Positions 1 to 18,784 of a stretch of 29,991 nucleotides of DNA are shown one piece after another; positions within the stretch are counted from its first letter, which is position 1; each line of letters opens with the position of its first letter. Position numbers and translations under genes: made by a program. This DNA comes from a virus (taxonomy: Duplodnaviria > Caudoviricetes). The notes beneath the pieces are model-generated. The model had not been told where the DNA came from and ran no database searches. It saw only the letters and a list, made by a program, of their open reading frames with translations. The stretch is taken from IMG/VR virus record IMGVR_UViG_3300020138_000097, positions 1-29,991 of that record, one strand, 5' to 3'.

Positions 1-1176
1 ATGAGGGAAGAAGACGGCCACCAGCTTGCCGCTGCATTCAACCAGCAGAACAATCGCACGGCATCACCCGCGGCGGCGAACGATACGGCACCGCCCGCAG
101 ACCTGCCCGCGCTGTTTCTCGCCGCCGTTGAAAACGGCAAATACGACGATGCCGCGCGCCTGATCGGCACCGGCGTCAACGTCAATGCGCAAAACGCGCA
201 ACGCAAATCCGCGCTGGCCGTCGCCGTCGAAAATCACGACCGCCACCTGGTGAAACTGCTGATCAAATCCGGCGCCGATGTCGCGAAATACGAACAGGAT
301 ACCGGCAGCACGCTGCTGGGCCGCCTTGCCGATGCCAAAACCGATTTCAGCCCTGCGGAGGAAGCCATCGCCGTCATGCTGATGGATGCAGGCGCGAAGG
401 CGCAGGCCTATGACCGCCACGGCATGCCGGTGCTGGTGCGTTATGCTTCCATGGGTATGAGCCGTGCGCTGGATACCGCACTGCTGGCCGGCGCCGATCC
501 GGAGACGCTGAACCCGACAACGCAGCTCTCGGCGCTATACTACGCCATCAACGGCGGCAAGACGGAGATTGTCGAAAAACTGCTCGCCGCCGGCGCGAAC
601 CCGAACGGCGCCGCGCAGGAAAAAACGTCGCCCATGGTCGCGGCGCTGCGCAACGGCGGCAAGCCCGGGATACTGGACGCGCTGATCCGCGCCGGCGGCG
701 ACCCGAACAGGGAAACCGGCAGTTTCAACGAAACCCCTTTTATGGTCGCCCTGCAGACGGGGCAGAAAGCGTTGATTGAAGCCCTGATCAACGGCGGGGC
801 GGATGTAAACGCCATCATGCCGAACGGCAAACCCGTTTTGCAAAACGCCGTACTGAATGGCGTGGACGACGACGGGATTGACCTTTTGCTCCAAAAAGGC
901 GCGAACCCGAACGATTTTTCGACCGAATTCGGCACCGCGCTGCACACCGCCGTGCACCGCAACCGGCAGGCGGTCGTCAGTCTCTTGCTGCGCCATAACG
1001 CCGACCCGCTGCGCCCGAATACGGAGGGCACGACACCGTTGCAATGCGCCATCGCCAAGCTCGGGCGGGAGAACCCGATTGTCGACCGGCTGCAAATTGC
1101 CGACGGCGCCGCACGCATGGCGCAGGAACAAACCGGACGGCAGCAACCGCCGCCGCCATATTACTTCGGACATTAA
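1..1176 (+). CDS. Ankyrin-repeat protein (391 aa)
   Basis: Repeated ANK motifs: SALAVAVEN..LLIKSGADV, SALYYAINGG..LLAAGANPN, ETPFMVALQ..LINGGADVN, TALHTAVHR..LLRHNADP. The start lies at the window edge. Confidence 0.9.
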   Translation: MREEDGHQLAAAFNQQNNRTASPAAANDTAPPADLPALFLAAVENGKYDDAARLIGTGVNVNAQNAQRKSALAVAVENHDRHLVKLLIKSGADVAKYEQDTGSTLLGRLADAKTDFSPAEEAIAVMLMDAGAKAQAYDRHGMPVLVRYASMGMSRALDTALLAGADPETLNPTTQLSALYYAINGGKTEIVEKLLAAGANPNGAAQEKTSPMVAALRNGGKPGILDALIRAGGDPNRETGSFNETPFMVALQTGQKALIEALINGGADVNAIMPNGKPVLQNAVLNGVDDDGIDLLLQKGANPNDFSTEFGTALHTAVHRNRQAVVSLLLRHNADPLRPNTEGTTPLQCAIAKLGRENPIVDRLQIADGAARMAQEQTGRQQPPPPYYFGH

Positions 1177-1246
1177 GGACGCGCGCGAAAACAGAGGGTG
1201 TTTTTGAAGCTACCGCTTAACGTCTAACGTCAAGGAAACGATCCAG

Positions 1247-3568
1247 ATGTTCCCATCGTTCAACAAATCGTCGCGGCCCGCCGGCAAGGGCATCAACGCC
1301 CCGCTGGATGACAACAGGCGCACCGCGCTGCATCTCGCCGCCGCCGACAAAGACGAGGTTTCCCTGCACCGCCTGCTGCGCATCGGCGCGAACCCCAACC
1401 AGCCCGACAAATTCGGCCAGACGCCGCTGTTCGACGCCGTCAAAAGCGGCAGCCTTGCCGCCGTCAGGACGCTGGCGGGCAAAGGCGGGCGCATGAACCA
1501 CCGCGACGACAAGGGTCGCGGCCTGATCGATTGGGCGATCGAAACCGGCGCCGCGCCTGACATGCTGGTGGTGCTGCACGGCCTCGGCGCCGCTTTCGAT
1601 GCCAGCCCCAAAACGAAACAGAACGCGCTGCATACCGCCGCCGCCGCGGGCCGACCCGAATTGTTCGAGGTGCTGGCAGCGCTCGGCCTTTCCGTGAACG
1701 GACGCGACAAGGACGGCAACACGCCGCTGCATCTCGCCGCCGCGGGCGGGCATGCGGATGCCATGCGCAAGCTGATCGACATGGGCGCGGATCCAACATC
1801 CGCAACACCAATATCCGAAACGCCGCTCTATGTCGCCGCCGAAAAGGGATTCGGGGAAGGCGTCGATCTGCTGATCACCCTGCCGCGCGTCGCGCGGGAA
1901 GTGAACAGCCATGCGAATTACAGCAGCGGCTTCACCCCACTGATGGTCGCGGCGCACAAGGACTTTCCCGCCGTCATCGAAAAGCTTTTCAACGTCGGCG
2001 CGGACATCAACCAGACGGACAACCGCAACCGCAACAGCCTTTACATCGCCGCCGAGGCCGGCAACGTGGAGGCTGCGAAAAAACTCGTGCGTCTCGGCGC
2101 CGACGCGGGCAAGGGACAATTGCCGCGCAGCAGCCATACGCCGCTTTTGCACAACATCGGCCGCGCGCAATACCGCGAGATGCTGGCCGTGCTGGTCGGC
2201 GCGGGCGCGGATATCGACGCGGCCGACACCGGCGGCAATACCGCCCTGCACCGCGCCTGCGACATGACGCATGCGGACAAGATCCGGGCGCTGCTGGATT
2301 TCGGCGCGGATCCCAATCTTGTCAACGACTACGGCCAGCGCGCGCTCGACGAGCTGATCGACAATTATACCTATCGCATGACCGACGCGCCGGAGCTGGT
2401 CGCCGCCTTGCTGCAAAAAGGCGCCAGCCCCGATATCTCCCCCGTCGCGGAAATCCAGGAAGGGCCGCTGCACCGCGCCGCGCAATACGGCCACTGCCGG
2501 AGCGTGGAGCTGATGTTGCAGCATAACGCGATGGTCGACGGCTACAGCCGCGGCTTTTCTCCCAAGACCGCTTTGCTGCTGGCGGCGGAACACGGCCATG
2601 CGACGGTCGCCGCCGCGCTGCTGGAAAAAGGCGCGAACCCGCTGAAAACCGACGGACAGGGGCGCAATGCCCTGCATCTTGCCGCCCACAACGGAAACGA
2701 GGCGCTGGTCACGCTGCTGCTGGCGCAAAAGGGCGTGGATGCGAATGCGACGGACGACATCGGCCGCAGCGCGCTGCACCATGCCTGCCTGCGCGAAAAA
2801 GACGATGCGGCGAAAATATTGCTGGCCGCCGGCGCGGATGCGGATCTTTACGACAAAAACGGCTTCACGCCGCTGCAACTGGCCATACAAATGGGCAATA
2901 CGGACATTCTTTCTGTTTTCGCCGAATGGCAGGGCGGCAAGGCGGACTGGAACGCCCGCACGGCGGAAAAACAGGAAAGCCTCTTGCACCTCGCCGTCCG
3001 CCACGGGATGGAAGCGCCCGTGCGCAAACTGATCGACCTTGGCGCCGATATCTGCGCCGTGAACGAAAAAGGCCAGAGCCCGCTGCATCTTGCCGTTGCC
3101 GATAACAACAGCGCCCTTGCCGATATGCTTTTAAAGGAGCTGGACGGCAAAAACATCCACCCCGACAGCCTGACGGACAAGGAGGGCAATACCCCGCTGC
3201 ATACGGCCGTGCTGCACGACCACACGCCGATGCTACGCCGGTTGCAAGAGGCGGGTGCGGATATGACGAAGCGCAACGGCGCGGGCGACATGCCGATCCA
3301 CATCGCGGTGCGGGAAAACCATGCCGACGCCGTGTCGTACCTGGCAAGGCAGGAGAATATCCGCGTGCTCGCGCCCGGCAAGGACGGCAAGACCGCGCTG
3401 CAGCTGGCGCTGGAGGGGCAAAACGAGCGCATCTTCTCCGCCCTTTTGCCGCGGGCGATGGAAGAACAGAGCAGACAGGCGGAAAATAACGCGCCGCCAG
3501 CGCCGGAAAATGACGCGACTCCCAAAAAGAGCAAAAAGCCGAGGCCGCCGAAACCGAACGGCCCGTAA
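1247..3568 (+). CDS. Long ankyrin-repeat protein (773 aa)
   Basis: Many tandem G-x-T-[PA]-L-H-x-A..L-L-x-x-G-A-[DN] repeats over nearly the whole length. AAGGA RBS at about 1232. Lys/Pro-rich C-terminal tail. Confidence 0.95.
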   Translation: MFPSFNKSSRPAGKGINAPLDDNRRTALHLAAADKDEVSLHRLLRIGANPNQPDKFGQTPLFDAVKSGSLAAVRTLAGKGGRMNHRDDKGRGLIDWAIETGAAPDMLVVLHGLGAAFDASPKTKQNALHTAAAAGRPELFEVLAALGLSVNGRDKDGNTPLHLAAAGGHADAMRKLIDMGADPTSATPISETPLYVAAEKGFGEGVDLLITLPRVAREVNSHANYSSGFTPLMVAAHKDFPAVIEKLFNVGADINQTDNRNRNSLYIAAEAGNVEAAKKLVRLGADAGKGQLPRSSHTPLLHNIGRAQYREMLAVLVGAGADIDAADTGGNTALHRACDMTHADKIRALLDFGADPNLVNDYGQRALDELIDNYTYRMTDAPELVAALLQKGASPDISPVAEIQEGPLHRAAQYGHCRSVELMLQHNAMVDGYSRGFSPKTALLLAAEHGHATVAAALLEKGANPLKTDGQGRNALHLAAHNGNEALVTLLLAQKGVDANATDDIGRSALHHACLREKDDAAKILLAAGADADLYDKNGFTPLQLAIQMGNTDILSVFAEWQGGKADWNARTAEKQESLLHLAVRHGMEAPVRKLIDLGADICAVNEKGQSPLHLAVADNNSALADMLLKELDGKNIHPDSLTDKEGNTPLHTAVLHDHTPMLRRLQEAGADMTKRNGAGDMPIHIAVRENHADAVSYLARQENIRVLAPGKDGKTALQLALEGQNERIFSALLPRAMEEQSRQAENNAPPAPENDATPKKSKKPRPPKPNGP

Positions 3569-3614
3569 TCAAGCAGCCCGCAACCGAACAGGTTGAAACC
3601 AAACGGAGGGAAAC

Positions 3615-4082
3615 ATGAACAAGAAGATCGCCGCCGCCGTTGCCGCACTTTGGCTCACGGCGCTTTCGCCCGCAGCGGCGCAGATGCATATTTCAAACGG
3701 GCAGCAGACGACCGTGACAGAAGGCCTTTCCCCCCAGCCTGCCATGCCGGCGGGGAACGAAATGCCGCCCGTGGGCGTTGTCAAATCGGTGACACCGGTA
3801 TCCGCCTGCCTTGACCAATTGCCGCCCGAAGAAGCGGCAGAGGTACGCGCGCGCTATCTGAAACCCTATCAGGAATGCCAGCGCCGCCTGCAGATTCACG
3901 CGATCAAAAGAGCGAAAGCGGGCGATCAGGGCGACTCCGGCGAAGAAAAAAAGGCGGAAAGCCCGCGTAACTTTATCCGCGTGCAAAAAGACGCCGCGCC
4001 CGCAGCGGCGCCGATTATCGGCCTTAAAAACAGCGATGCCGCGGCAAAACGTGGAAAAACACCCGATCTTTACAACCGTTAA
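3615..4082 (+). CDS. Secreted hypothetical protein
   Basis: GGAGGG RBS, Sec-type signal peptide MNKKIAAAVAALWLTALSPAAA, and a Cys pair (SACLDQL..YQECQRRL). Confidence 0.75.
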   Translation: MNKKIAAAVAALWLTALSPAAAQMHISNGQQTTVTEGLSPQPAMPAGNEMPPVGVVKSVTPVSACLDQLPPEEAAEVRARYLKPYQECQRRLQIHAIKRAKAGDQGDSGEEKKAESPRNFIRVQKDAAPAAAPIIGLKNSDAAAKRGKTPDLYNR

Positions 4083-4154
4083 GGCCCCCTGTCGCTTGGG
4101 GCGGGATTGTGATAAAATGTAAGGAACAGGATTTTCCCCTTCCGGAGTTTTTGC

Positions 4155-4769
4155 ATGATCCGCCCGTTTCCCTTTATCGCCTTTCTTGCCGTTGCGCTGC
4201 TGGTTTCCGGCACGCCGGTGACACTTTTCGCGCAATCCTCCTATACCGGCTCGACGGAGGGCTTTGTCGGCACGAAAGCCAAAAAGCCGCCCGCGCTGGA
4301 AGAAATGGACGAGCAGGCCTTCAACGACGAAATGGAGCGCACCCGCCCGCAACTGCCGCCCGTTTTTGAAAACGTGCAGGCCCCGACCGCCATTAACGAA
4401 GACGGCACCGCCGCCGCCACAGCGGAGGATCCTTGCGCCGCCTATCTCGGTAATTTCGACGGCTATACGCTGTGCCAGGATCGCATCCAGAAAATCCAGA
4501 AAATGAAGGACGGCCGGAAAACCCGCAAGGGGGCCTACGGCACGCAGCAGAAAATCCGCGCCTCCGAGCAGCGTCGGATAGATGCGGAAAAAGCGGCGGT
4601 GGAGGCTGCCGCGGCGGAAGAGAAAGCCAAGGAAGAAGCAACCAAGGCCGCGGATGAAAACGCCGCCGAAGACAATGCCGCCGCCGAGGAAGAAAAAGAG
4701 AAAACCCCCGCCGAAAAAGCGCGGGAACGCAAGGAGGAGCGTCTGAAGCCGAAAAAAATCGGCGGATAA
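4155..4769 (+). CDS. Secreted hypothetical protein with charged E/K/A-rich C-terminus
   Basis: GGAG RBS, signal-peptide-like N-terminus, a Cys pair (DPCAAY..YTLCQDRI) and a low-complexity charged tail. Confidence 0.75.
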   Translation: MIRPFPFIAFLAVALLVSGTPVTLFAQSSYTGSTEGFVGTKAKKPPALEEMDEQAFNDEMERTRPQLPPVFENVQAPTAINEDGTAAATAEDPCAAYLGNFDGYTLCQDRIQKIQKMKDGRKTRKGAYGTQQKIRASEQRRIDAEKAAVEAAAAEEKAKEEATKAADENAAEDNAAAEEEKEKTPAEKARERKEERLKPKKIGG

Positions 4770-4784
4770 GGCGTATGCGCCGTT

Positions 4785-5558
4785 TTACTTCTTCAACTGT
4801 ATTTTCTTCAAGACCGGCACGGCGCGGCCAGAACCTTCGGTCAGACGCTTGACATCGTAATTTTCAAACGCGCCCTTGACCAGGTCTTCCATGCCCCATT
4901 TGCGGGCGATATCCTGCACACTTTGCTGGCGGCAGTCGACCTGCGACACGTCCGCCCCCGATTTCAGCAACGCGCAGACCTTGCGCGCCGCGCCGGCACC
5001 GCGATTCAGCTGGCGCATGAGCACGGTGCGGCCGTCCTTATCCTTCGCCTCCAGATCGATCTGGCCGCGACGAAGCAAACGCACGAAAGATTTGGGCAAT
5101 CCGTCGCCTTCGGCAGCGAGCATGAGGGCGGTCGCGCCTGATTTATCCCGCGCCATCGGATCGGCGCCCCGTGCCGCCAGCGCCGTCATCAGCTGCGGCA
5201 GGTTTTTTTCCGCCGCGAGCAGATAGGCGGTTTTGCCCGTCTCGTTCGCGGCGGCGAGATTGAACGGCAGGCTGAGGCACATGGCCGCCACTTTATCCTG
5301 CCGCGCGGCGAGGGCGAGCATCAGGGCATCGCTGCCTTCGTTGTCGAGGAAATCAAGCGCCGCGCCGCGTTCGACGAGGAAACCGAACATCGCCGCATCG
5401 CCGCGCTTGGCCGCGATGAGCAGGGCATTGTCGCCCGCGCCGTCCGTTTTGTTGATCCGCGCACCGGCGTCGAGCGCGTTGCGCACGCCCGGCAGGTCGC
5501 CCGCTTTCGCGGCCTGTAACAAATCGCTGTTGGCGATATCGTTTCCCGTCTGGGTCAT
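4785..5558 (-). CDS. Ankyrin-repeat protein
   Basis: LLQAAKAGDL..LDAGARIN, GDNALLIAA, GKTAYLLAA and GATALMLAA repeats. ATG at 5558 preferred over the ORF-track start at 5582. Confidence 0.9.
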   Translation of the reverse strand: MTQTGNDIANSDLLQAAKAGDLPGVRNALDAGARINKTDGAGDNALLIAAKRGDAAMFGFLVERGAALDFLDNEGSDALMLALAARQDKVAAMCLSLPFNLAAANETGKTAYLLAAEKNLPQLMTALAARGADPMARDKSGATALMLAAEGDGLPKSFVRLLRRGQIDLEAKDKDGRTVLMRQLNRGAGAARKVCALLKSGADVSQVDCRQQSVQDIARKWGMEDLVKGAFENYDVKRLTEGSGRAVPVLKKIQLKK

Positions 5559-5903
5559 TCTTTGCGGCCCGAATCGAATCAAAGCCGCGCGGCGCGGCGG
5601 GGTTAAAACAGGCTTTTACTCTACGCTCCATATATGGAAATGTCAAAAATTCCCGCTTTTTTGTTATTTTTGGTTAAAAATCAATCCTCTATGCGAAGGG
5701 CACCGGCCGCCGATTGCCCCTTCCGCAAACGCGGGGCATGCGGCCGCCTTGACATGAAACGCCGTGAAACAATCGCGCCCGCGGGCAAAACCGCGCCGCG
5801 CCGCCAAAAAAATCCGCGCCCGCCAAAACTGCCTAACGGTTTGAAATGCCGTATCAACTTTGCCCGCCGCGACAGAAGTGCGGACGGACGCTTCGCCCTT
5901 TGC

Positions 5904-6021: not shown

Positions 6022-6333
6022 ATGACCGTCAAAAAGCCCAGCCGCAAAAAAGCTGCCGTAAAAAAAACGACCGGCGTCAAACGCCCCCCGCGCCGGCGCA
6101 AAACGGCAAAGAATATCCGCGATGCCATCAACGTATTGGCGCTGATCGAGGCGCTGGAGCAACATGTTCTCGGCGAAAAGAAAATGACGGCGACGCAGGT
6201 CAGCGCCGCGCTGGCGCTTTTGAAAAAAACGCTGCCCGATATCGCGGCCGCCGCCGGCGGCAAAACGGCGGATGACGCCGCTGGCCCCGCTGCCGTCATG
6301 AGCCATGAAGACGCCTTGCAGGCGCTGGAATAA
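6022..6333 (+). CDS. Putative terminase small subunit
   Basis: 103 aa directly upstream of TerL. Helical core LIEALEQHVLGEKKMTATQVSAALALLKKTLPD and C-terminal HEDALQALE, with a basic N-terminal tail. Confidence 0.7.
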   Translation: MTVKKPSRKKAAVKKTTGVKRPPRRRKTAKNIRDAINVLALIEALEQHVLGEKKMTATQVSAALALLKKTLPDIAAAAGGKTADDAAGPAAVMSHEDALQALE

Positions 6334-6348: not shown

Positions 6349-7782
6349 ATGAACGCAAAAGAACAACGCATCCGCGCACGGCTGATGCATGATTTCGCGC
6401 ATTACGCGAAAAAATGCCTTTTCATCCGCAGCAAGAACGGCGCCATCGCCCCCTTGCAGCTGAACGCCGCGCAGCGCCATTTGCACGACCGCCTGGAGGA
6501 ACAACTGCTGACCACGGGCCGCGTGCGCGCGCTGGTTTTGAAGGGGCGGCAGCAAGGATGCTCCACCTACGCGCAGGCGCGGTTTTACTGGAAAACGACG
6601 CACCGCCGCGGCGTGCGCGCCTTTATCCTGACGCATCTCGACGAAGCGTCGCAGAACATCTACCAGATCGTGCGGCGGTTTCATGACAACTGCCCTGCCG
6701 CCGTGCGTCCGCAAACGGGGCTGGCCAACCAGCGTAGTCTTTTGTTCAGCCGCCTCGATTCCGGTTACAGCGTCGGCACCGCCAAATCGCAAGGCATCGG
6801 GCGGTCGCATACCATACAGTATTTTCACGGCTCGGAAGTCGCCTATTGGCGCCATGCCGAAGACCATATCGCCGGCGTTCTGCAAGCCGTGCCCGATGCG
6901 AAGGGAACGGAAATCATATTGGAAAGCACCTCCGCCGGCGCGACGGGGCTGTTCTATCAATTGTGCCAGGAGGCCATCAAAGGCCGGTCCGAATTCATTT
7001 TCGTTTTCATCCCGTGGTTCTGGCAGGACGAATACCGCGCCGCGCCGCCCGAAGATTTCACGCCGACGCCCGACGAAGCCGAATACAAACAGGCTTTCCA
7101 TCTGGACGCCGCGCAAATCTACTGGCGCAGGTTGAAAATCGCCGCGCTGGGCGGCATCTGGACGTTTCGCCGTGAATATCCCAGCACGCCCGACGAAGCC
7201 TTTCATAGCGACCGTCCGGGCGCGCTGTGGCAGCGCGAAACGATCGAGAAAAATCGCCGCCACGCCGACGACGCGCCCGAGATGAAGCGCATTATCGTCG
7301 CCGTCGACCCTGCCGTGACGGCAAACCGCCACAGCGACGAGACGGGCATTGTCGTCGCGGGCCTCGGCACGGACGATCATGCCTATATTCTGGCCGATCT
7401 GTCGGGTAAATACGCGCCCGCCGCCTGGGCATCGCAGGTGGTCAATGCCTATTACGCCCATGCCGCCGATTGCGTGGTCGCGGAAGTCAACCAAGGCGGC
7501 GACCTGGTCGAGCATACGCTGCGCAGTTTCGATCCGTCGATCGCCTATAAATCCGTGCATGCCAGCCGCGGCAAGATCGCGCGGGCGGAGCCCGTGGCGG
7601 CGCTGGATACGCGCGGCATGGTGCATCACATCGGCCGTTTCGCGCAGCTGGAAGACCAGATGTGCGCCTTTGACCCGGTCGAAAACGCCAAAAGCCCCGA
7701 CCGCGTGGATGCGCGCACCTGGGCGGTGACGGAATTGCTGCTGAAACGCCCCCAGCCCGCGCAGCCGCTGATCTGGCGATAA
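6349..7782 (+). CDS. terL: Terminase large subunit
   Basis: Walker A-like LKGRQQGCST, Walker B-like YFHGSEVAYW and ILEST coupling motif. RNase H-like nuclease motifs IIVAVDPA, DETGIVVAG, EVNQGGD and SPDRVDA. Confidence 0.93.
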   Translation: MNAKEQRIRARLMHDFAHYAKKCLFIRSKNGAIAPLQLNAAQRHLHDRLEEQLLTTGRVRALVLKGRQQGCSTYAQARFYWKTTHRRGVRAFILTHLDEASQNIYQIVRRFHDNCPAAVRPQTGLANQRSLLFSRLDSGYSVGTAKSQGIGRSHTIQYFHGSEVAYWRHAEDHIAGVLQAVPDAKGTEIILESTSAGATGLFYQLCQEAIKGRSEFIFVFIPWFWQDEYRAAPPEDFTPTPDEAEYKQAFHLDAAQIYWRRLKIAALGGIWTFRREYPSTPDEAFHSDRPGALWQRETIEKNRRHADDAPEMKRIIVAVDPAVTANRHSDETGIVVAGLGTDDHAYILADLSGKYAPAAWASQVVNAYYAHAADCVVAEVNQGGDLVEHTLRSFDPSIAYKSVHASRGKIARAEPVAALDTRGMVHHIGRFAQLEDQMCAFDPVENAKSPDRVDARTWAVTELLLKRPQPAQPLIWR

Positions 7783-7847
7783 TAAATGCCCTGTGTCATT
7801 CCGGGCGCAGCCGACACTTTTTATCTTTAATCATGGAGTATATCCGG

Positions 7848-9074
7848 ATGGGTTTTAAAAATCCGCTCGCCGCCCTGTTCGGCCGCAAGGAACAAAAGGC
7901 CAGCGCGGCCGCGCCGCTGCTGGTGCAATGGGGCGCGGGGCAGCCGCGTTTCACGCCGCGCCAGTACGACCAGTTGGCGCGCGAGGCCTATCAGAAAAAC
8001 GTGATCGCCTACCGCTGCATCCGCCTTGTCAGCCAGAACGCGGCGACCGTGCCGTGGATCGTGTACCGGGGCAAGGGAGAAAACCGCACGCGGCTGGAAG
8101 ACCACCCGCTCAAATCTTTGCTTGAAAACCCCAACCCCATGCAGGGCGGCGCCGAATTGTTCGAGGCGCTGTTCGGTTTTTATCTGATTGCGGGCAACAG
8201 CTATCTCGAAGGCGTCGGCGCGACGGACGCGGCCCCGCGCGAGCTTTGGACGCTGCGCCCCGACCGCATGCGCGTTATTCCCGGCAAACACGGCGTGCCC
8301 GCCGCCTACCGCTACCAGATCGGCGGGGAGGCAATGGATTTTCCCGTCGATGCCCTGACGGGCGCTTCCGCCGTGCTGCATTTGAAATCCTTTCACCCGC
8401 TGGACGACTGGTACGGCATGAGCCCGCTGGAATCCGCCGCCGCCAGCATCGACCAGCATAACGACGCCGCGCGCTGGAACGCCGCGCTGTTGCAGGCGGG
8501 CGGGCGGCCTTCCGGCGCGCTGGTGTACAAGCCCGCACATCCCGACGGGGCCGCGACGCTGACGGACGAGCAGCGCCAGTCGTTGAAAAACGAACTGGAG
8601 GCCTTTTTCCAGGGCCCCGATAACGCCGGCCGCCCGCTGGTGCTGGAAGGCGGGCTGGACTGGCGCGATATGTCGCTCTCGCCCAAGGATATGGACTGGC
8701 TGGCGGGCAAGGATGTTTCCGCGCGGGAAATCGCGCTGGCCTTCCACGTGCCGCCGCAGCTGATCGGCATCGAGGGGTCGCTGACCTTCGCGAATTTCGA
8801 GCAGGCGCGGCTCGCCCTCTTCGACGATGCCGTCATCCCCCTGCTGGACCATGTGAAGGACGAGCTGAACAAATGGCTTTGCCCGCAATTCGGCACCGAT
8901 CTTTGCATCGGCTATGACATGGATGCGATCGAGGCCTTTGCCCCCCGTCGTGAAAAAGCCTGGGCGCGCATCAGCGGCGCCGATTTCATGACGGTGAATG
9001 AAAAGCGCATCGCCCTCGGCCTCTCCCCGCTCGACGGCGGGGATGTTTTGCCCGGAATGGAGAGCAAGGCGTGA
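7848..9074 (+). CDS. Phage portal protein, HK97 family (RcGTA g3-like)
   Basis: Motifs PRELWTLRPDRM, HLKSFHPLDDWYGMSPLE, NAGRPLVLEGGLDW, AREIALAFHVPP and FMTVNEKR. The GGAG RBS at 7835 favours ATG 7848. Confidence 0.95.
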   Translation: MGFKNPLAALFGRKEQKASAAAPLLVQWGAGQPRFTPRQYDQLAREAYQKNVIAYRCIRLVSQNAATVPWIVYRGKGENRTRLEDHPLKSLLENPNPMQGGAELFEALFGFYLIAGNSYLEGVGATDAAPRELWTLRPDRMRVIPGKHGVPAAYRYQIGGEAMDFPVDALTGASAVLHLKSFHPLDDWYGMSPLESAAASIDQHNDAARWNAALLQAGGRPSGALVYKPAHPDGAATLTDEQRQSLKNELEAFFQGPDNAGRPLVLEGGLDWRDMSLSPKDMDWLAGKDVSAREIALAFHVPPQLIGIEGSLTFANFEQARLALFDDAVIPLLDHVKDELNKWLCPQFGTDLCIGYDMDAIEAFAPRREKAWARISGADFMTVNEKRIALGLSPLDGGDVLPGMESKA

Positions 9075-9379
9075 TGCAGGCGCTGCGCTTCACGCTCGGC
9101 GGCGTGCAGTATGCCATCCGGCCCGATGCGTGCCTTTTGCTGCAGATCGAGGACGAGCTTGGCGCGCTGCCCGCGCTGGCTACCGGATTTCGCACGGGCC
9201 GATGGCATTTCGCCGATCTGGTCAGCCTGTTGCACATGATGCTGCAACACGGCGGCAGGACGCTGGATTACCACGTGCTCGGCAATCTCGTCCTGCAAGC
9301 GGGCGTAGCGGAATGCCACCGCGCGGTTTTGCGGTTTTTCGATCTTTTGCACCTGCCCTTTGACAACGTTACCGAATAA
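9071..9379 (+). CDS. Hypothetical protein resembling the GTA-gp10 tail assembly chaperone
   Basis: GTGA overlap with the portal stop. Pattern FTLGGVQYAIRP..LLQIEDELGALPALATGFRTGRWHFADLVSLL..GG recalls GTA-gp10. Confidence 0.55.
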   Translation: MMQALRFTLGGVQYAIRPDACLLLQIEDELGALPALATGFRTGRWHFADLVSLLHMMLQHGGRTLDYHVLGNLVLQAGVAECHRAVLRFFDLLHLPFDNVTE

Positions 9380-9391
9380 AGGCGAGCGGCC

Positions 9392-11155
9392 ATGACATCC
9401 ATTTCGAACATCGTTTATCAAAAAACACAGTCGGAAGGGACGGGAAACATATCCCTTTCCTCCGTTGCGGGCTATCGCAGTTTTTACGCGGCCTTCGGCA
9501 CGGGCGGCAACGATATGTTTTTTTACGCCCTGCGCCATCATGCACTGGACGAATGGGAGATCGGCACGGGGCATTTGTCGGATGCGACGACGCTGGTGCG
9601 CGATACGGTCATCGCCTCCAGCAATGCGGGCACGCACGTGAGTTTTTCGGCAGGTGACAAAGACGTTGTGAACGACATTCCCGCAGAGCGGCAATTGCCC
9701 CTGCCCGCCGCGCCGCAGACGGGCGATCTGCTGCGCTATGACGGCAGCAAGTGGGAGCGCCTGTCGCGCGGCACGAGCGGCCAGATGCTGCAAAGCACGG
9801 CAGAGGCGATAAACTGGGCCACGCCCGCCATCGGCGATATCGGCGGGCTGCAATCGGCGCTGGACGGCAAAAGCGGCACGGACCATACCCATAGCAGCGC
9901 CGATATGACCGATTTCACCGCGCAAATGGCCGCCAAGGCCGATGCCGTCCACGGCCACGCCATTGACGATGTGACGGATTTGAGCGATGCGCTCGCCGCC
10001 AAAGCCGATGCGGCGCATAGCCATGCGACAGCCGATATCACCGGCCTTGCCGCCGCGCTGGCGGACAAGGCGGCGGCGACGCATACGCATGCCGTCGGCG
10101 ATGTCACGGGCCTGCAATCGGCGCTGGACGGCAAGGCGGATGCGAGCCATACGCATACCGCCGCGGCTATTACGGATCTTTCGGAAGCGCTGGCGGCCTA
10201 TGCGCCCGTGGCGCGGCAGATCGGCGGCGCGGGCAGCCTCACGGGCGGCGGGGATTTAACGGCAGACCGCAGCCTGCAACTGACAGGCGATGCCGATACG
10301 CCCGGCAATAACAAATATTACGGCACCGACGGCGCCGGCGATAAAGGCTTTCACGACCTGCCCACGGGCGCGGCGGCGGAGAATATCAGCGCCGATACCG
10401 CGGCGCTGCGCCTGATTACGGGCGGCGATGTGCAGGCGGCGCTCGCCGCCGCCGATGGCGCCCTGCTGCAAGGCGGTTTTTCACCCCGGCATTTGATTGC
10501 CTTTCATCATCTGGCGGGTAACCTGTCGGGCAGCATTTTCACGGCATCCGCCAGCGGCTCGGGCGCGAATGCCGGCACCGTCGATACGGATTATATCCGG
10601 AATACCGACGCCCTCGGCACGCTGTATATGTCTTGCGGGACGGCGGCGTCAGGCGCGGCCCTGCGCGGCTTCGGCAACGCGCCGCTGATGGTGCACGCAG
10701 ACGGCAAGACCATCAAAATCGTCAGCCGCATACAAATCGGCACGCTGATCGCGACGGGATCGCAGGAATTCTATGCCTGGGGCGGGTTGACCGCCGGCAC
10801 GGCCGCCACGACCAATCCCGATACGACCGTCGGCGTTTACTGGATCTATGATAAAACCAGCGCCAACTGGCAATTGCGCCGACGGCTTGCATCCTCCACC
10901 GACAGCGTGGATACGGGCGTCGTGGTGGAAGTGGATACCTGGTACGACATGGCTCTGACCGTCCACGGCGACAGCGACCAGAACGACGTTTCCATGACGC
11001 TCGCCATCAACGGCACCGATGTCGCCACGATCGATACGCTGCCCGCTTATGTGTCCTATAATGTCGTTTCCGCCGCGATCCAGAAAAAGCTCGGCAGCGG
11101 CGCGCGTTACCTCTACCTCGACTACGAGGGTATTTTCGCAGGGCGCAGCGCATGA
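9392..11155 (+). CDS. Virion fibre-like protein with HxH repeats
   Basis: N-terminal phage fibre-type domain (GTGNISL..EWEIGTG..TTLVRDTVIASSNAG..FSAGDKDV), central 22-aa HxH repeats and a beta-rich C-terminal domain. Confidence 0.75.
   Translation: MTSISNIVYQKTQSEGTGNISLSSVAGYRSFYAAFGTGGNDMFFYALRHHALDEWEIGTGHLSDATTLVRDTVIASSNAGTHVSFSAGDKDVVNDIPAERQLPLPAAPQTGDLLRYDGSKWERLSRGTSGQMLQSTAEAINWATPAIGDIGGLQSALDGKSGTDHTHSSADMTDFTAQMAAKADAVHGHAIDDVTDLSDALAAKADAAHSHATADITGLAAALADKAAATHTHAVGDVTGLQSALDGKADASHTHTAAAITDLSEALAAYAPVARQIGGAGSLTGGGDLTADRSLQLTGDADTPGNNKYYGTDGAGDKGFHDLPTGAAAENISADTAALRLITGGDVQAALAAADGALLQGGFSPRHLIAFHHLAGNLSGSIFTASASGSGANAGTVDTDYIRNTDALGTLYMSCGTAASGAALRGFGNAPLMVHADGKTIKIVSRIQIGTLIATGSQEFYAWGGLTAGTAATTNPDTTVGVYWIYDKTSANWQLRRRLASSTDSVDTGVVVEVDTWYDMALTVHGDSDQNDVSMTLAINGTDVATIDTLPAYVSYNVVSAAIQKKLGSGARYLYLDYEGIFAGRSA
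9830..10200 (+). repeat. 66-nt/22-aa tandem repeat (phage tail repeat-like)
   Basis: HxH codons start at 9884, 9950, 10016, 10082 and 10148. The 23-mer CTGCAATCGGCGCTGGACGGCAA is identical at 9848 and 10112, which is 4x66 nt apart. Confidence 0.9.
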
Positions 11156-11328
11156 CGGGCCAGCCGCTTTTCGCCGCGCCGATCGCTGCGGTCCTGCCGC
11201 AAGGCATGGCAAGCCTGTCCGCGGGCGGCGCGCGGTATTTCGGCATTTCCTGCCGCTTTGCCGGCGCATCGTCGCAAGCCGCGCGGTACGCGCCCGCCCG
11301 CCACATATCCGCCATACTCGTCCATTGA
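11152..11328 (+). CDS. Small hypothetical protein (58 aa, absent from the ORF track)
   Basis: ATGA overlap with the fibre gene stop. MTGQPLFAAPIAAVLPQ...HISAILVH* fills the gap up to the next RBS (GAGG). Confidence 0.55.
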   Translation: MTGQPLFAAPIAAVLPQGMASLSAGGARYFGISCRFAGASSQAARYAPARHISAILVH

Positions 11329-11346
11329 AACAAGAGGCCGCCGCCC

Positions 11347-11691
11347 ATGCATATCAACCCCCATCCCCTGATCCGTACCCATAGCGGGGAGGATATCGTC
11401 CTTGCCTTTCACGTGACGGACGCGGCGGGCGTGGCGCTGGATCTGACCGAAGCTGCCGCCACCTATAAAATCGCCCGCCGCGCGGGAGAATCCGCGCTGC
11501 TCGTCAAAACGCAGGAGGACGGCATCGTCCTTTCCGGCGGCACGGCGACGGTATCGCTGAACACGGCAGCACTGGCAGCGGACGGGCAGCCGTTGATCGG
11601 CGACTTCTGGGGGCAGCTGACCCTGTCCCTGAACGGCGCCACGCAGGTGGCGGCCGAAGGGCCGCTCGCCGTCGCCCCTGTCATTGCCTGA
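11347..11691 (+). CDS. Small beta-sandwich structural/adaptor protein (BppU-N/LtfC-like)
   Basis: GEDIVLAFHVTDAAGVALDLTEAAATYKIAR..GTATVSL pattern typical of fibre-attachment domains. Confidence 0.55.
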   Translation: MHINPHPLIRTHSGEDIVLAFHVTDAAGVALDLTEAAATYKIARRAGESALLVKTQEDGIVLSGGTATVSLNTAALAADGQPLIGDFWGQLTLSLNGATQVAAEGPLAVAPVIA

Positions 11692-11711: not shown

Positions 11712-12446
11712 ATGTCCCTGCATCTGACTTCGCCGCTGGAACTGAAATTCGTCGCCGGTGGCGGCACGTTCGAAGGCTATGCCTCCGTTTTCCACGTCAC
11801 CGACAGCGCCAACGACCGCGTGCAACCGGGCGCGTTCCGAAAATCGCTGGAAAGCGCGCGGGCGGAAAACCGCCTGCCGCCGCTGCTATGGCAGCACGAC
11901 GCGCAAAAGCCCATCGGCGTCTGGCACGAGATGTTCGAGGACAGCCACGGGCTGTTTGTCCGCGGGGAGCTGTTTGTGGAGGACATCGCCCAGGCGCGCG
12001 AAGCCTATAAGCTCATGCGCGCGGGTGTCGTCACGGGGCTGTCCATCGGCTACCGCACTATCAAGGCCGAACGCGACGCCAAAAGCGGCGCGCGGCTGCT
12101 GACCGAAGTGGAATTGCTGGAAGTTTCCATGGTCACTTTCCCCGCCAATGCGCTGGCACGGGTGCGGCATGTGAAATCCCTGCTGGCGGACGGACAAATT
12201 CCGTCCGAACGTGAATTTGAGGCTTTCCTGCGCGAGGCAGGCCTGAGCCGCAAACAAGCCAAGGGGCTGATCGCCCATGGCTATAAAGCCCTCATTTCTG
12301 ACGGCTGCAACGCCCTCGACGCGCGGGATGCGGCGTCAACGGCGGCAAGCGATGATGCCGACACCCATGCCGCCATCCGGCGGCTGGCGGAGGATATGCA
12401 TCGTGCCGCCGCTTCCCTTTCCCTCCTCTCTTTTGACAAGGAATAA
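11712..12446 (+). CDS. Prohead protease, HK97 family (peptidase S78)
   Basis: FEGYASVF, LLWQHD, GLSIGY and LLEVSMVTFPAN motifs. Confidence 0.95.
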   Translation: MSLHLTSPLELKFVAGGGTFEGYASVFHVTDSANDRVQPGAFRKSLESARAENRLPPLLWQHDAQKPIGVWHEMFEDSHGLFVRGELFVEDIAQAREAYKLMRAGVVTGLSIGYRTIKAERDAKSGARLLTEVELLEVSMVTFPANALARVRHVKSLLADGQIPSEREFEAFLREAGLSRKQAKGLIAHGYKALISDGCNALDARDAASTAASDDADTHAAIRRLAEDMHRAAASLSLLSFDKE

Positions 12447-12449
12447 CAG

Positions 12450-13736
12450 ATGACAAACGACATCCGCTCCGCGGTCTACGATCTGGGCCGCGCTTTCGAG
12501 GCTTTCAAGGAAGCCAATGACCAGCGCCTGCGCGAGATCGAACGCCGGGGCAGCGCCGACCCGCTGACCGAAATGAAAGTCAACCGCCTGAACGCCGAAA
12601 TCACCCGCGCGATCGATTCCGCCGATGCCGCCAAACGCCGCGTCGACCAGATCGAAACCGCCATGCACCGCAGCCCCGTGGGCGGCGGCGGCGACTGGAA
12701 GGAAGCCGAAACCTTCATGCTGGAGCGCAAAGGGTTCATCAGCGGCGATCTCGGCATCGACGCCTATCGCCAGTATAAAGGCGCGTTCCGCAGCTACTTG
12801 CGTAAAAACAATGCCGGCAGCGGCGTGGACGAGATCAAGGCGCTGTCCGTCGGCTCCGACCCCGACGGCGGCTATACCGTGACGCCCGATATGTCGGGCC
12901 GCATCGCGGCGCTGGTGCGCGAAACGTCGCCCATGCGCCAGGTGGCGAACGTCATCACCATCGGCACCGACGCGCTGGAGGGCATCCACGACACGGGCGA
13001 GGCGACCTCCGGCTGGGTGGGCGAAACCGAAGCCCGCACGGAAACCGCCGCGCCCAAAATCGGCGAATACCGCATTCCCGTGCACGAGCAGTATGCGGAA
13101 CCGCGCGCGACGCAAAAACTGCTCGACGACAGCCTGTTCAATATCGAGGAGTGGCTGTCCCTGAAAATCGCGGAACGCCTTTCGCGAATGGAAAACGAAA
13201 GCTTCATCCACGGCAACGGCGTGAAAAAGCCGCGCGGGTTCCTGACCTATGCGACGGGCACGCCCGGCGCGTCCGGTTTTAACGTGATCGAGCAGCTGCC
13301 GAGCGGCGGCGCGGGCGGCTTTGCCGCGGAGGATCCGGGCGACGCCCTGATCAACCTCGTCTACGCCCTGAAATCCGCGTATCGCGAGAAGGCGGTTTTC
13401 ATGATGAAGCGATCGACCCTTGCCGAGATGCGCAAGCTGAAGGACGGCAGCGATAATTACCTCTGGCAGCCGGACTTCCAGATGCAGCAGGGCGGCACGC
13501 TTTTGGGCTTTAACGTGGTGGAGGCGGAGGATATGCCCGCCATCGGCGCGGACAGCCTTTCCATTGCCTTCGGCGATTTCAACGCGGGATACCAGATCGT
13601 TGACCGCCAGGGCATCCGTATTTTGCGCGACAGCTTCACCGCCAAGCCCTACGTCAAGTTCTATACGACGAAGCGCGTGGGCGGCGACGTGGTGAATTTC
13701 GAGGCGATCAAGCTGATGAAATTCTCCGCCGCCTGA
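12450..13736 (+). CDS. Major capsid protein, HK97 family (RcGTA g5-like)
   Basis: KALSVGSDPDGGY, SPMRQVA, ATQKLLDDS, IAFGDFNAGYQIVDR and KPYVKFYTTKRVGG motifs. AAGGA RBS. Confidence 0.96.
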   Translation: MTNDIRSAVYDLGRAFEAFKEANDQRLREIERRGSADPLTEMKVNRLNAEITRAIDSADAAKRRVDQIETAMHRSPVGGGGDWKEAETFMLERKGFISGDLGIDAYRQYKGAFRSYLRKNNAGSGVDEIKALSVGSDPDGGYTVTPDMSGRIAALVRETSPMRQVANVITIGTDALEGIHDTGEATSGWVGETEARTETAAPKIGEYRIPVHEQYAEPRATQKLLDDSLFNIEEWLSLKIAERLSRMENESFIHGNGVKKPRGFLTYATGTPGASGFNVIEQLPSGGAGGFAAEDPGDALINLVYALKSAYREKAVFMMKRSTLAEMRKLKDGSDNYLWQPDFQMQQGGTLLGFNVVEAEDMPAIGADSLSIAFGDFNAGYQIVDRQGIRILRDSFTAKPYVKFYTTKRVGGDVVNFEAIKLMKFSAA

Positions 13737-13817
13737 AGCTGACCCTCGCGCAAGGCCCCCGGCGAGCCATTGCCGCCTTGCACACCCCGCCTCCCCTGAC
13801 GGCGCGGTTTTTTAAAA

Positions 13818-13849
13818 CCGGCGCCGCGCGGCGGCTTCCGGGGGTTTTT
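13818..13849 (+). terminator. Imperfect terminator-like hairpin after the capsid gene
   Basis: CCGG-c-GCCGC/gcg/GCGGC-tt-CCGG followed by GGGTTTTT. Confidence 0.4.
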
Positions 13850-13878
13850 CATTCAATACTTGAAAAAGGACAAACCAG

Positions 13879-14328
13879 ATGCACGATATTGTAAACAACA
13901 TTGCGGTCCTGCAGGTGCTGGCCCCGCAAACCATCCAGGCCGAGGCGCTCGACAGCGGCGCGATCGACATGCAGGGCTGCGATGCGCTGGCCGTGGCCGT
14001 ATTGATCGGCGCCATCGGCGATACGCTGGCCGCCGGCAAGCGTATCGACCTTAAAATCCAGCATGCCGATGACGACGGCACGGGCGCGCCCGCCGCTTTT
14101 GAAAACTGCACGGCGGAGGACGTCTTGAATGCCGATACCGTCACGAACGGCCTTTTCCTCTCGATAGATGACGATGCGCAGGAAAATGCGCGCCACGTCG
14201 TGGGCTATCGCGGCGGCAAGCGCTTCGTCAAGGTGACGGCAACGCCCGTTTCCCTGTCCACCGGCGGGCCGGTCGCCATGCTGGCGCTGCAAGGCAACGC
14301 GGCGCAAAAGCCCGTGGATAACGGCTGA
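13879..14328 (+). CDS. Putative capsid decoration/cement protein
   Basis: 149 aa directly after the MCP with AAAGGA RBS. Beta-rich pattern AIDMQG..LKIQHADD..GYRGGKRFVKVTATP recalls Bbp16-like jelly-roll cement proteins. Confidence 0.6.
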   Translation: MHDIVNNIAVLQVLAPQTIQAEALDSGAIDMQGCDALAVAVLIGAIGDTLAAGKRIDLKIQHADDDGTGAPAAFENCTAEDVLNADTVTNGLFLSIDDDAQENARHVVGYRGGKRFVKVTATPVSLSTGGPVAMLALQGNAAQKPVDNG

Positions 14329-14391: not shown

Positions 14392-14645
14392 AAACAGTTC
14401 TTTGAAACCGGGAAATCCCGTCTGGTTGTAAAAAACTCCATGCGCGAATCTTGCGCAGACTGGACGCGCTTCATGCCGCGGAAGAAGCGGAAGACGTTAA
14501 TCTTCCCGGATTTGACTTCCACGGGTTAAGAGGTTTTAAACCGAAACGGTATACAATACATGTGAATGGGCCTTGGTGCATTACGTTCGCTTTCGAGAAG
14601 GGTCATGCAAGCGAGGTTGACTTTGAAAATTACCATCAAAATTGA
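14392..14645 (+). pseudogene. higB: HigB/RelE-family toxin, 5'-truncated and frameshifted
   Basis: KQFFETGKSRLVV in one frame and LHARILRRLDAL..LPGFDFHGLRG..RYTIHVNGPWCITFAF..DFENYH in the -1 frame. The shift is at the A6 run 14430-14435. No start codon or RBS for the first segment. Confidence 0.8.
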
Positions 14646-14661
14646 TGGAAGGAATTTAGTG

Positions 14662-14973
14662 ATGAACAATAAAAGATGCCCGTCCCATCCCGGCATTCTT
14701 TTAAAAGAAGATGTGCTTCCCGCCATGAACCTGACGAAATCGCGGGCGGCGGAGTTGCTGGGCGTTTCCCGTGCATACCTTTACCGTCTTTTGGACGGTG
14801 AAGTGCCCATGTCCGTCGAAATGTGCCTGAAGATCGGCAAGCTTGCCGGCAACGGCGGGCGGCTGTGGTGGAACATGCAGGCCGCCTATAACCTGTGGCA
14901 GGCGGAGCACGACCCGGAAATACGCAAAATAGTGAAACGCGTGCCTTCATACAAAGAACTTGAAAGCGCATAA
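14662..14973 (+). CDS. higA: HigA-family antitoxin (XRE HTH)
   Basis: HPGILLKEDVLP..AAELLGVSRAYLYRLL..WWNMQAAYNLW, with GAAGGA RBS. Confidence 0.92.
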   Translation: MNNKRCPSHPGILLKEDVLPAMNLTKSRAAELLGVSRAYLYRLLDGEVPMSVEMCLKIGKLAGNGGRLWWNMQAAYNLWQAEHDPEIRKIVKRVPSYKELESA

Positions 14974-15020: not shown

Positions 15021-15042
15021 ATTGGCCGAAAGCGAGTTTTTG

Positions 15043-15684
15043 ATGTCCCGACCTGCTTATCACCTGATCGAAACGGCGTCGCCGGGCGCAGAGCCCGTAA
15101 CGCTGGAGGAAGTGAAGCTGCATTTGCGCATCACGCATGATCATGAAGACACGCTTTTGTCATCGCTGATCATGACGGCGCGCCTGATTTGCGAAGCGGA
15201 CACCGGCCTTGCACTGATCACCCGCGCCTACAGCCTGTGGCTGGACAGCTGGCCGTCCGCGCCGCAGCGCGAATGGTGGGACGGCGTGCGCGAAGGCATT
15301 GCCGCAGGCGGCGGGGAAACCGTTTTCCTGCCCCGTCCGCCGCTAATCGCTGTCAGCGCGATTTTAATCTATGCCGACAACGGCGCATCCGGCGCTCTCG
15401 ACCCCGAAAACTATCATACGGATACCATCCGCAAACCCGGGCGCATCGTGCTGCGCTACGGCGTCAGCGCGCCCGTTCCGGGCCGCAGTGTCAACGGCAT
15501 CGAAATCCGCTATACCGCCGGTTTCGGCGCGACGCCGCACAGCATCCCCGCCCCGCTGCGCCAGGGCATGTTGCAAATGATCGCACATTTGTACCGCCTG
15601 CGCGGCGATGCGCCGGAAACGGCCCTGCATGCCTCCGGTGCGGCGGCGCTGTTCCGCCCGTTTCAGCAGATGAGGCTGTCGTGA
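15043..15684 (+). CDS. Head-tail connector (gp6-like, RcGTA g6-like)
   Basis: AEPVTLEEVKLHLRI, TGLALITR, NGIEIRYTAGFGA and IPAPLRQGMLQMIAHLY motifs. Confidence 0.9.
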   Translation: MSRPAYHLIETASPGAEPVTLEEVKLHLRITHDHEDTLLSSLIMTARLICEADTGLALITRAYSLWLDSWPSAPQREWWDGVREGIAAGGGETVFLPRPPLIAVSAILIYADNGASGALDPENYHTDTIRKPGRIVLRYGVSAPVPGRSVNGIEIRYTAGFGATPHSIPAPLRQGMLQMIAHLYRLRGDAPETALHASGAAALFRPFQQMRLS

Positions 15685-16007
15685 TCGGCGCGATGCGGCA
15701 CCTGCTGACGCTGCAGGAAGAAGTTTTAATCCCCGCGGGCGGCGGCGGATTCACGCGCACGTGGCAAAATATTACCACCACGCCGCAGGTTTTTGCGGAA
15801 ATCACCGCCATCGGCGGCGGCATGCGAACAGACCTGCGGCAGGAAACGGCGATGGCCGTCTACCGCCTGCGCATCTATCACCGCCGCGATGTGGCGGCGG
15901 GCATGCGGCTGGTCGGCGATGCGCGCATTTATTACATCCGCCATGTCGCCGACCCCGACGGGACGGAGCGCTATCTGCACCTGACGGCAGAGGCGCACGG
16001 CATTTAA
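15681..16007 (+). CDS. Head closure / head-tail adaptor (SPP1 gp16-like)
   Basis: GTGA overlap. MRHLLTLQE..GGGGFTRTW..RLRIYHRRDVAAGMRLV..YYIRHVADPDG. Confidence 0.88.
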   Translation: MIGAMRHLLTLQEEVLIPAGGGGFTRTWQNITTTPQVFAEITAIGGGMRTDLRQETAMAVYRLRIYHRRDVAAGMRLVGDARIYYIRHVADPDGTERYLHLTAEAHGI

Positions 16008-16012
16008 CCGCT

Positions 16013-16040
16013 TTCATGAAAACAGGGTGCGCGGTATGAT
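16013..16040 (+). promoter_or_regulatory. Possible promoter of a leaderless transcript
   Basis: TTCATG, 16-nt spacer, TATGAT ending 6 nt before ATG 16047. No RBS visible. Confidence 0.35.
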
Positions 16041-16046
16041 AACGCC

Positions 16047-16457
16047 ATGTTATTCGCCGTTTTTATGATCGTGATCTGGGGGCTTGCCCTTTTCCACCGC
16101 GCGGAACACAGGGGCCTGCCCGCAGAGCTTGCCGCCATTCATCCGCAAGCCGCGCCGGATGCGGGCGCGCGGATCGCGGGAACGGACTGGCGCGTGACGG
16201 CGCATACACCGAGCCGGCTGACAGTCAAGCGCGCGTTCGAGCCCGTCGGCCGGGCGGGAAAGCTGCGCTATGCCGTGCCGGTGCTGGCGGTCGCCATCAT
16301 GATGATCTGGCTGCAAAGTGCGGCGCTGACGGCTTTTTACCTGGGGTTTTTATATCTGCGCTGGTTTGCGCTGCGCATCGAGATTGAAAAAGGCGCCGAC
16401 CGCATGTTTCACGTGCTGATCGGCGCCCATCATTTGTACGCGGATAAAATCCCGTAA
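16047..16457 (+). CDS. Hypothetical membrane protein (inserted gene)
   Basis: Hydrophobic N-terminus plus a hydrophobic hairpin (YAVPVLAVAIMMIWL..AFYLGFLYLRWF). No phage motif recognised. Confidence 0.6.
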   Translation: MLFAVFMIVIWGLALFHRAEHRGLPAELAAIHPQAAPDAGARIAGTDWRVTAHTPSRLTVKRAFEPVGRAGKLRYAVPVLAVAIMMIWLQSAALTAFYLGFLYLRWFALRIEIEKGADRMFHVLIGAHHLYADKIP

Positions 16458-16459
16458 GC

Positions 16460-17227: not shown

Positions 17228-17340
17228 AGGCGGTGACACTCCTTCAGATAGCCGCGGGACGAATAACCTCATCAATGACGAGCCATTCTTTAAGGATAAT
17301 CCCTTGCGCTCCGTTTTTCAAACAGCAAGAGCATAAAACC

Positions 17341-17760
17341 ATGTCCGCAGAAACCTTGTTACATGTACAAGCCGCCGTTTACGGGCGGCTTTCGGGCGAT
17401 GACGCGGTCACGTCCCTGCTGGCGGCGGCGGATGCCGTTTACGATCAGGTGCCGCAAGGCAGCGCTTTTCCCTATATCGTGCTGGCCGATATGGCCGCCC
17501 GCCCCGCCGATACCCAGCGGTTTTCGGAAACGGCGGTTTTTTTGAGCATCGAAACCTACAGCCGCACCGCCGGCAAGCACGAATGCCAGCGCATCGCCGC
17601 CGCCATCGAAGCCGCCCTGCACGAGGCCGACTTCGCCGTAACGGAGCACCGGCTGGTGTTTTGCCGCATCGCCGCCACCGAAATTGCGCAAATCTATGAC
17701 GCCACGACCTGGCGCTGCCGCCAGAACCTGCAACTGCTTGTCGAACCCGTCGACGCCTGA
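17341..17760 (+). CDS. Tail completion/terminator protein (DUF3168, RcGTA g8-like)
   Basis: VQAAVYGRLSGD..VYDQVPQGSAFPYIVL..YSRTAGKHECQRIAAAIEAALH. Confidence 0.9.
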   Translation: MSAETLLHVQAAVYGRLSGDDAVTSLLAAADAVYDQVPQGSAFPYIVLADMAARPADTQRFSETAVFLSIETYSRTAGKHECQRIAAAIEAALHEADFAVTEHRLVFCRIAATEIAQIYDATTWRCRQNLQLLVEPVDA

Positions 17761-18773: not shown

Positions 18774-18784
18774 GGTAGAAGATC

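Follow-up and report, generated by a model that had tools for sequence, protein, structure and literature searches.

A hybrid large terminase, likely born in a phage, in a chromosomal and likely GTA-like head-tail cluster of Micavibrio-related Alphaproteobacteria

The large terminase (TerL) encoded in the window, by which we mean the whole 29,991-nucleotide stretch of DNA analysed here, is a hybrid of two terminase families. Its ATPase half descends from one family and its nuclease half from another, the two meet at the linker between the domains, and the same hybrid is spread across phages, prophages and bacterial chromosomes. We favour the reading, at a probability of about 0.7, that this is an old hybrid, likely phage-born once and now fixed in a chromosomal, likely GTA-like cluster. 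Full-length hybrids are labelled H, relatives of the N-terminal half A and relatives of the C-terminal half B. The features of the window are as follows.

1..5582, unstranded: upstream flank, host-like, with ankyrin-repeat genes and two small ORFs, syntenic in relatives
6022..6333, plus strand: small-terminase-like gene, 103 aa, with a HEDAL-type tail (about 6304-6330) at its C-terminus; conserved ahead of the hybrid TerL
6349..7782, plus strand: hybrid TerL ORF, 477 aa
6349..7206, plus strand: TerL ATPase and lid-like helical subdomain, aa 1-286, family A, T4-gp17-like
7201..7212, plus strand: TerL junction, inter-domain linker (aa 285-288), from profiles, breakpoint scan and AF2 model
7207..7782, plus strand: TerL RNase H-like nuclease (Terminase_6C), family B, with D320, E379 and D454
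7833..9074, plus strand: HK97-family portal
9071..11691, plus strand: GTA-gp10-like chaperone, phage-tail-repeat protein, small conserved ORF
11712..14328, plus strand: prohead protease, HK97 major capsid protein, conserved phrog_5707 ORF
14566..14973, plus strand: HTH antitoxin-like gene inside the cluster
15022..19243, plus strand: adaptor (TIGR02215), head closure, tail terminator, tail tube, chaperone, 152-aa ORF
19268..27368, plus strand: tail tip, with phrog_384, DUF1833, NlpC/P60, lambda-TipJ-like protein, fibre-like ORF and endolysin-like gene
26925..27368, plus strand: the endolysin-like gene
27933..29991, unstranded: downstream flank, host-like, with an ankyrin gene and an M48 peptidase

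All nine motifs on which the sequence-only reading had based its claim of a chimeric TerL were located in the translation. The N-terminal half carries LKGRQQGCST (aa 64-73), HGSEVAYW (160-167), QIYWRRLKI (256-264) and FRREYPSTPDEAF (aa 273-285, 7165-7203), the EAF of which ends at 7203. DRPGALW follows at aa 288-294 (7210-7230), and the C-terminal half carries IIVAVDPAV (315-323), EVNQGGDLV (379-387), RGKIARAEPVAAL (407-419) and SPDRVDA (449-455). A profile of 37 family-A TerLs gave high identity to about aa 286 and weak identity afterwards (487 bits), and a profile of 38 family-B TerLs aligned over aa 287-470 alone (267 bits); this switch is far beyond chance. The optimal breakpoint between A and B fell at aa 285-287, in agreement with the motif switch that had been noticed at about 7201-7212, although A identities past aa 286 are depressed by alignment noise in the breakpoint scan, so that the profile alignment is the better guide there. 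In the AF2 model (pLDDT 87) the junction is coil between helices 281-285 and 296-302, and the breakpoint lies at the linker from ATPase and lid to nuclease, as had been proposed. The only Pfam match was to Terminase_6C (aa 318-461), and the PHROG matches belong to different families for each half. No step in GC was seen at the junction beyond a change from 0.59-0.62 to 0.65. An assembly artefact was ruled out, since one contig of run X1 spans the whole stretch (run X1 may itself be its source) and the same junction occurs in more than 140 independent proteins.

The relatives of the ATPase half are a TerL family of podophages and prophages (41-58% identity to family A), and no BLAST match to family B was found. 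The nuclease half is 43-63% identical to family B and has no BLAST match to family A. Cultured phages gave 253 records for the N half, the best being Vibrio phage 1.182.O and Pseudoalteromonas phage H6/1, and 365 for the C half, including R26L, CRP-6, mu1/6 and R5C; the best 40 listed for each half (of 253 and 365) had zero overlap. Family-A TerLs (vB_PspP-H6/1, Vibrio 1.182.O, Escherichia PTXU04 and alphaproteobacterial prophages) share with the hybrid the ATPase and lid, KGRQQG, HGSE and the small terminase (TerS) tail described below. However, their own nuclease is Sf6-gp2-like by profile (E 1.5e-17), with no BLAST match to that of the hybrid, and their adjoining portals are P22-like (three checked). 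On the packaging mode of family-A phages nothing was found in the literature searched, most subscription papers lying outside that search.

The protein has the architecture of a phage large terminase, an N-terminal ASCE ATPase followed by a C-terminal RNase H-like nuclease (Terminase_6C, AF2/Foldseek). Among solved structures, a search by sequence yielded no useful match. Foldseek with the AF2 model placed T4 gp17 first (E 3e-21; ATPase domain rmsd 3.7 A) and also returned the HK97, Sf6 and D6E TerLs. The family-A ATPase profile matched the T4 gp17 ATPase at 1e-20, and the family-B nuclease profile had no match to T4 gp17. The hybrid is 15-16% identical to T4 gp17, whose Walker A Lys and Walker B Asp are both replaced. 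In Walker A (window 6541-6567) the invariant Lys is shifted to the start of the motif (K65), with Cys at the site of the T4 Lys, an arrangement that presumably resembles the deviant Walker A of lambda. In Walker B (window 6817-6837) Ser-Glu (E163) stands in place of the T4 Asp-Glu. Both Walker motifs are deviant throughout the hybrid TerL family. The catalytic residues K65, R67, E163, D320, E379 and D454 are invariant across 30 hybrids.

The nuclease half had been called RcGTA-type. Family membership supports a relationship: family B includes the TerL of a Paracoccus RcGTA-like cluster (L153, 47% identical to the hybrid nuclease) together with R5C and mu1/6, phages of Table 1 in Esterman 2021 (PMC7947584), which defines a TerL 'RcGTA-like containing group' that takes in RcGTA-like TerLs (g2). 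A Terminase_6C match is also common to hybrid and RcGTA-like TerLs. Unlike these, the hybrid has neither Terminase_6N, which the Paracoccus reference carries, nor a GGRG-type (GGRGAGKT) Walker A. A322 and T332 of the hybrid correspond to RcGTA positions 282 and 292, a correspondence set by motif. According to Esterman 2021 (PMC7947584), Cys292 occurs in 99% of GTA TerLs and Thr292/Ala282 are commonest in related viruses; group 3 TerLs there differ from the hybrid in having Cys at 292 and mostly Pro at 282. Ala/Thr was found in 138 of 146 proteins and at 52 of 55 hybrid loci (the other three were unparsed), as against P/C or A/C in 12 of 14 GGRG TerLs. The canonical GGRG clade excludes the hybrids in the best nuclease trees (support 92), though the AU test does not reject the union of the two (p=0.335). 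Because both GTA-diagnostic sites are phage-like, 'RcGTA-type' overstates what is, as judged from these residues, a nuclease of an RcGTA-related family that is not strictly of GTA type.

When each half (aa 1-285, aa 288-477) was searched on its own, 120 proteins were listed per search, together 148 distinct ones. Among the matches listed, 145 of the 148 proteins matched both halves at E<1e-20; two of the remaining three have a truncated or divergent C end, and the third, P0148, matches the nuclease half alone. Genome loci (n=69) comprised 13 full-length matches, 53 matches to the N half only and 3 to the C half only. The best 80 viral loci comprised 10 hybrid, 68 A/A and 2 other, and hybrid TerLs were also present in 2 MAG prophages. 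In trees with P22, Sf6, SPP1 and T4 as outgroups, which came from quick searches and have very long outgroup branches, the hybrids nested in family A for the N half and joined family B for the C half (support 99*). AU tests on a 28-row subset rejected hybrid plus B for the N half (p=0.0003) and hybrid plus A for the C half (p=0.003). Searching and building trees for each half separately, as the sequence-only reading had suggested, therefore upheld its claim of discordant ancestry, in the relatives of each half, the profile switch, the deep topologies and the AU tests. A swap local to this element, as it had been read, did not survive: since a full-length hybrid family exists, both halves align full-length to one widespread family, some members of which are phage or prophage TerLs beside unrelated portals. 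The single-family test thus came out differently by depth, with one family at the shallow level and incongruent half-trees (AU) at the deep level. Recent local recombination was likewise rejected, as the junction is shared family-wide and dS is similar in both halves. The eight hybrid-adjacent portals scanned belong to four Pfam families (HK97, Mu, DUF4055 and Phage_portal_3), and the idea that the nuclease stays matched to the portal was left unsupported.

In the ATPase tree all 30 sampled hybrids, chromosomal and phage, fall in one clade (99*), plus L016. The 12 chromosomal hybrids form a subclade (support 86), and the phage hybrids lie outside it and are diverse. L016 (3745-5430), L033, L273 and L316 combine a family-A ATPase with a C half matching neither the A nor the B nuclease profile. 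A single nuclease clade of hybrids was not rejected by AU (p=0.735), but the nuclease tree is poorly resolved and the best tree needs four label changes for hybrids; several swaps onto one ATPase lineage are therefore possible. We infer a single origin of the hybrid, in a phage. The N part matches neither ATPase profile in 19 of 150 family-B nuclease representatives (P0155, P0167 and P0181 among them), so the family-B nuclease pairs with several motors. Judged by sequence, swaps at the ATPase-nuclease linker look recurrent. Domain exchange in terminases is already a known kind of event, and PMC12846349 describes non-congruent TerL domain trees in other phages. Our literature search, with most subscription papers and supplements outside it, found no hybrid TerL family, HEDAL-type tail or large Micavibrio cluster.

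The small-terminase-like ORF upstream of TerL had no Pfam or PHROG match and appeared in the protein atlas only in unnamed viral clusters. Homologues were found at 80 viral loci, at 79 of which the next ORF exceeds 300 aa, mostly with Walker A or TerL-profile matches. The TerL that follows was hybrid at 8 loci, A/A at 6, B/B at 1 and other or weak at 65; a strong family-A ATPase was present at only 14 of the 80. The TerS core precedes many TerL types and therefore does not track the ATPase. Import of the whole TerS with the ATPase is thus not supported, and only the tail tracks it. This tail has the pattern H-E-D/E-A/W-L-x-x-L-D/E at the C-terminus, and within the TerS core family it occurred at 10 of 11 loci with a family-A TerL and at 0 of 66 others. 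Over all loci with an upstream frame it was present at 90 of 171 distinct A-ATPase loci as against 0 of 34 B/B loci (Fisher p=2.5e-10), a comparison in which the motif was defined post hoc, from L068 and the hybrids, and loci that are related do not count as independent. The former divide into A/A (47/98), A/other (2/18), phage hybrids (9/12) and chromosomal hybrids (32/43). The strict form is absent from 81 of the 171 A loci; the background rate is 0.6% of frames. Tail-bearing genes in the TerS position (window 6304-6330; L013-L321) fall into 12 BLAST clusters of cores. In these sequences, then, the tail co-occurs with the family-A ATPase whatever the TerS core or the nuclease, and we suggest that it may bind the ATPase half. 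The co-occurrence fits known contacts between TerS C-terminus and ATPase: the C-terminal helix of RcGTA TerS binds the ATPase domain of TerL and not the nuclease (PMC6854486), and residues 140-162 of P22 TerS bind TerL 1-58 (PMC9611059).

The head-tail cluster occupies 6022-27368 (about 21 kb), with TerL between the 103-aa ORF and the HK97-family portal. HK97-type portal, protease, capsid, adaptor and tail tube are in the order of an RcGTA-like cluster. The cluster resembles the RcGTA and CcGTA clusters in its TerS-TerL-portal-protease-capsid-adaptor-tail order and chromosomal location; integrase and replication families were not found among the window ORFs scanned, some small ORFs lying outside the scan. 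It differs from them in its hybrid TerL, in separate portal and capsid clades and in a TipJ-like tail tip. GTA_TIM (megatron) was not found among the window ORFs scanned. Neither GTA_TIM nor DUF6456, which we take to be the GafA-type activator domain, was found in any of 5 related genomes, which may be incomplete (the Caulobacter control was positive for both). The portal and capsid each group as sister to their counterpart in prophage L135 (100*), to which they are 64% and 59% identical, as against 45% and 45% to the Paracoccus RcGTA-like cluster. The portal is also sister to that of virus L242, and is nested among portals adjoining family-B TerLs (99*). L135 (G013:C39) is a prophage and L242 a viral contig, both with a hybrid TerL, and G013 carries both the cluster and L135. 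A membrane ORF and a minus-strand Sel1-repeat gene interrupt the structural genes at 16047-17275. L001 and L002 gave no match to the HTH antitoxin-like gene. At the tape-measure position (18785-19243) stands an ORF of only 152 aa, and in some distant genomes (L137, L143) its homologue lies near terS or the portal.

Although the window is filed as a virus record, its host-like flanks share synteny with a MAG contig of 657 kb. The flanks hold four ankyrin-repeat genes (1-5582, 27933-28538), and those upstream are syntenic in most relatives. Of 13 full-length loci, 11 have ankyrin genes 5' of the cluster (L019 lacks upstream sequence, and no such gene is seen at L008), and the M48 gene is also found 3' of the cluster in G001. 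Where TerL and gyrB share a contig (12 genomes), gyrB is in 9 cases 33-40 kb downstream and on the other strand. Among named loci, the nearest are labelled 'uncultured Micavibrio sp.', and the host lineage belongs to an order that we take to be Micavibrionales. Hybrid TerL was present in 46 of 251 genomes drawn from the order of G001, and in 44 of 44 genomes with a close portal. The cluster TerL was found in 38 of 42 genomes of the Micavibrio-related family of G001, in single copy except in G013. For 28 genomes the TerL tree recovered 12 of 14 strong GyrB splits with zero strong conflict (Mantel r=0.735). The N-half tree alone had 2 strong conflicts with GyrB, and within the family the N-half and C-half trees are correlated (r=0.76). 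Both TerL halves have a dN/dS of 0.043-0.079 against three relatives, and dS is similar to that of flanking host genes. The cluster TerL is thus inherited congruently with the host and under purifying selection, and the cluster, like a GTA, is a vertically inherited, conserved chromosomal locus under such selection. Rhodobacterales GTAs, themselves vertically inherited, have a nearby dN/dS of 0.06-0.08, as cited in PMC9254644. The host lies where Shakya 2017 (PMC5721377) reported only small clusters, in Micavibrio.

The simplest reading of these data would be formation of the hybrid in a phage, followed by domestication of a prophage. Recombination at the flexible linker would have joined the ATPase and lid half to the nuclease half in a phage; PMC5389665 describes DNA being gripped by the terminase ATPase, and flexibility in the linker that follows the lid. 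In the proposed mechanism the ATPase half would grip and pump DNA, and the small terminase would recruit it through the C-terminal HEDAL-type tail, so that tail and ATPase would move as one unit. The nuclease half would be loosely tethered and exchangeable, with likely headful cutting, and the swap would change which small terminases dock and would not confer a new cutting specificity. A prophage with the hybrid TerL and an HK97-type head would then have been domesticated in the ancestor of the Micavibrio-related family, separately from RcGTA. Headful packaging, particle production and packaging of host DNA may be expected of the cluster. As a gene set it probably represents a GTA-like element with a domestication of its own, apart from that of RcGTA. 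Vertical inheritance and selection, together with the TipJ-like tip and searches that found no GTA_TIM or DUF6456 in the 5 genomes, argue that it likely works like a GTA but stands outside the RcGTA family.

That the hybrid is real and the cluster does something other than transfer DNA, as a retained defective prophage or as a source of particles for another use (decoy, delivery), we consider rather unlikely. A tail tip unlike that of RcGTA, a search that found no GafA-type regulator domain in the 5 genomes and a gene order that differs in more distant genomes would suit such a role. Yet the genes for TerL, portal and capsid have stayed intact, selection on them is strongly purifying, 38 of 42 genomes retain them, and the decay of a defective prophage would not leave packaging catalytic residues invariant. 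Still less probable is a swap inside an RcGTA-like cluster already resident in the host lineage, with a prophage supplying TerS and ATPase and the phage hybrids being later escapees; of the rival readings this one comes nearest to the sequence-only reading. A portal nested among family-B-paired portals (99*), RcGTA-like adaptor and chaperone families, and an AU test that does not reject a union of hybrid and canonical RcGTA nucleases speak for such an origin. Against it, the phage hybrids are diverse in the ATPase tree and lie outside the chromosomal clade (86), A/T sites occur at 52 of 55 hybrid loci as against P/C or A/C in 12 of 14 GGRG TerLs, portal and capsid are nearer to prophage L135 than to the Paracoccus RcGTA-like cluster, and GTA_TIM and DUF6456 were not found in the 5 genomes. 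An ordinary TerL subfamily whose domains merely evolve at different rates is scarcely credible: 145 of the 148 matches listed do align over both halves and the half-trees correlate within the family (r=0.76), but each half resembles a separate family (N 41-58% to A, C 43-63% to B) with no cross BLAST match, the crossover is sharp, AU tests reject congruence, and rate variation alone would not nest the halves in different families.

An old phage-born hybrid, fixed in a likely GTA-like chromosomal cluster, bears on how terminases are used as evidence. TerL is a widely used single marker for phage phylogeny, packaging strategy and GTA origin, and in the hybrid family, where the join is sharply mapped, the two domains of TerL give conflicting answers throughout. 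The contact between TerS and TerL is poorly defined, and the co-occurrence of tail and ATPase offers for it a short docking motif that can be tested. Large RcGTA-like clusters have been reported from one clade, and the host-congruent cluster points to a GTA-like element beyond it, which bears on how often GTAs have been domesticated. Somewhat short of even odds, in our view, is the fuller picture of a working, independently domesticated GTA in Micavibrio-related Alphaproteobacteria together with a portable TerS tail read by family-A ATPases. If true, unrelated DNA-recognition cores and nucleases would plug into one motor, which would amount to a natural modular packaging code.
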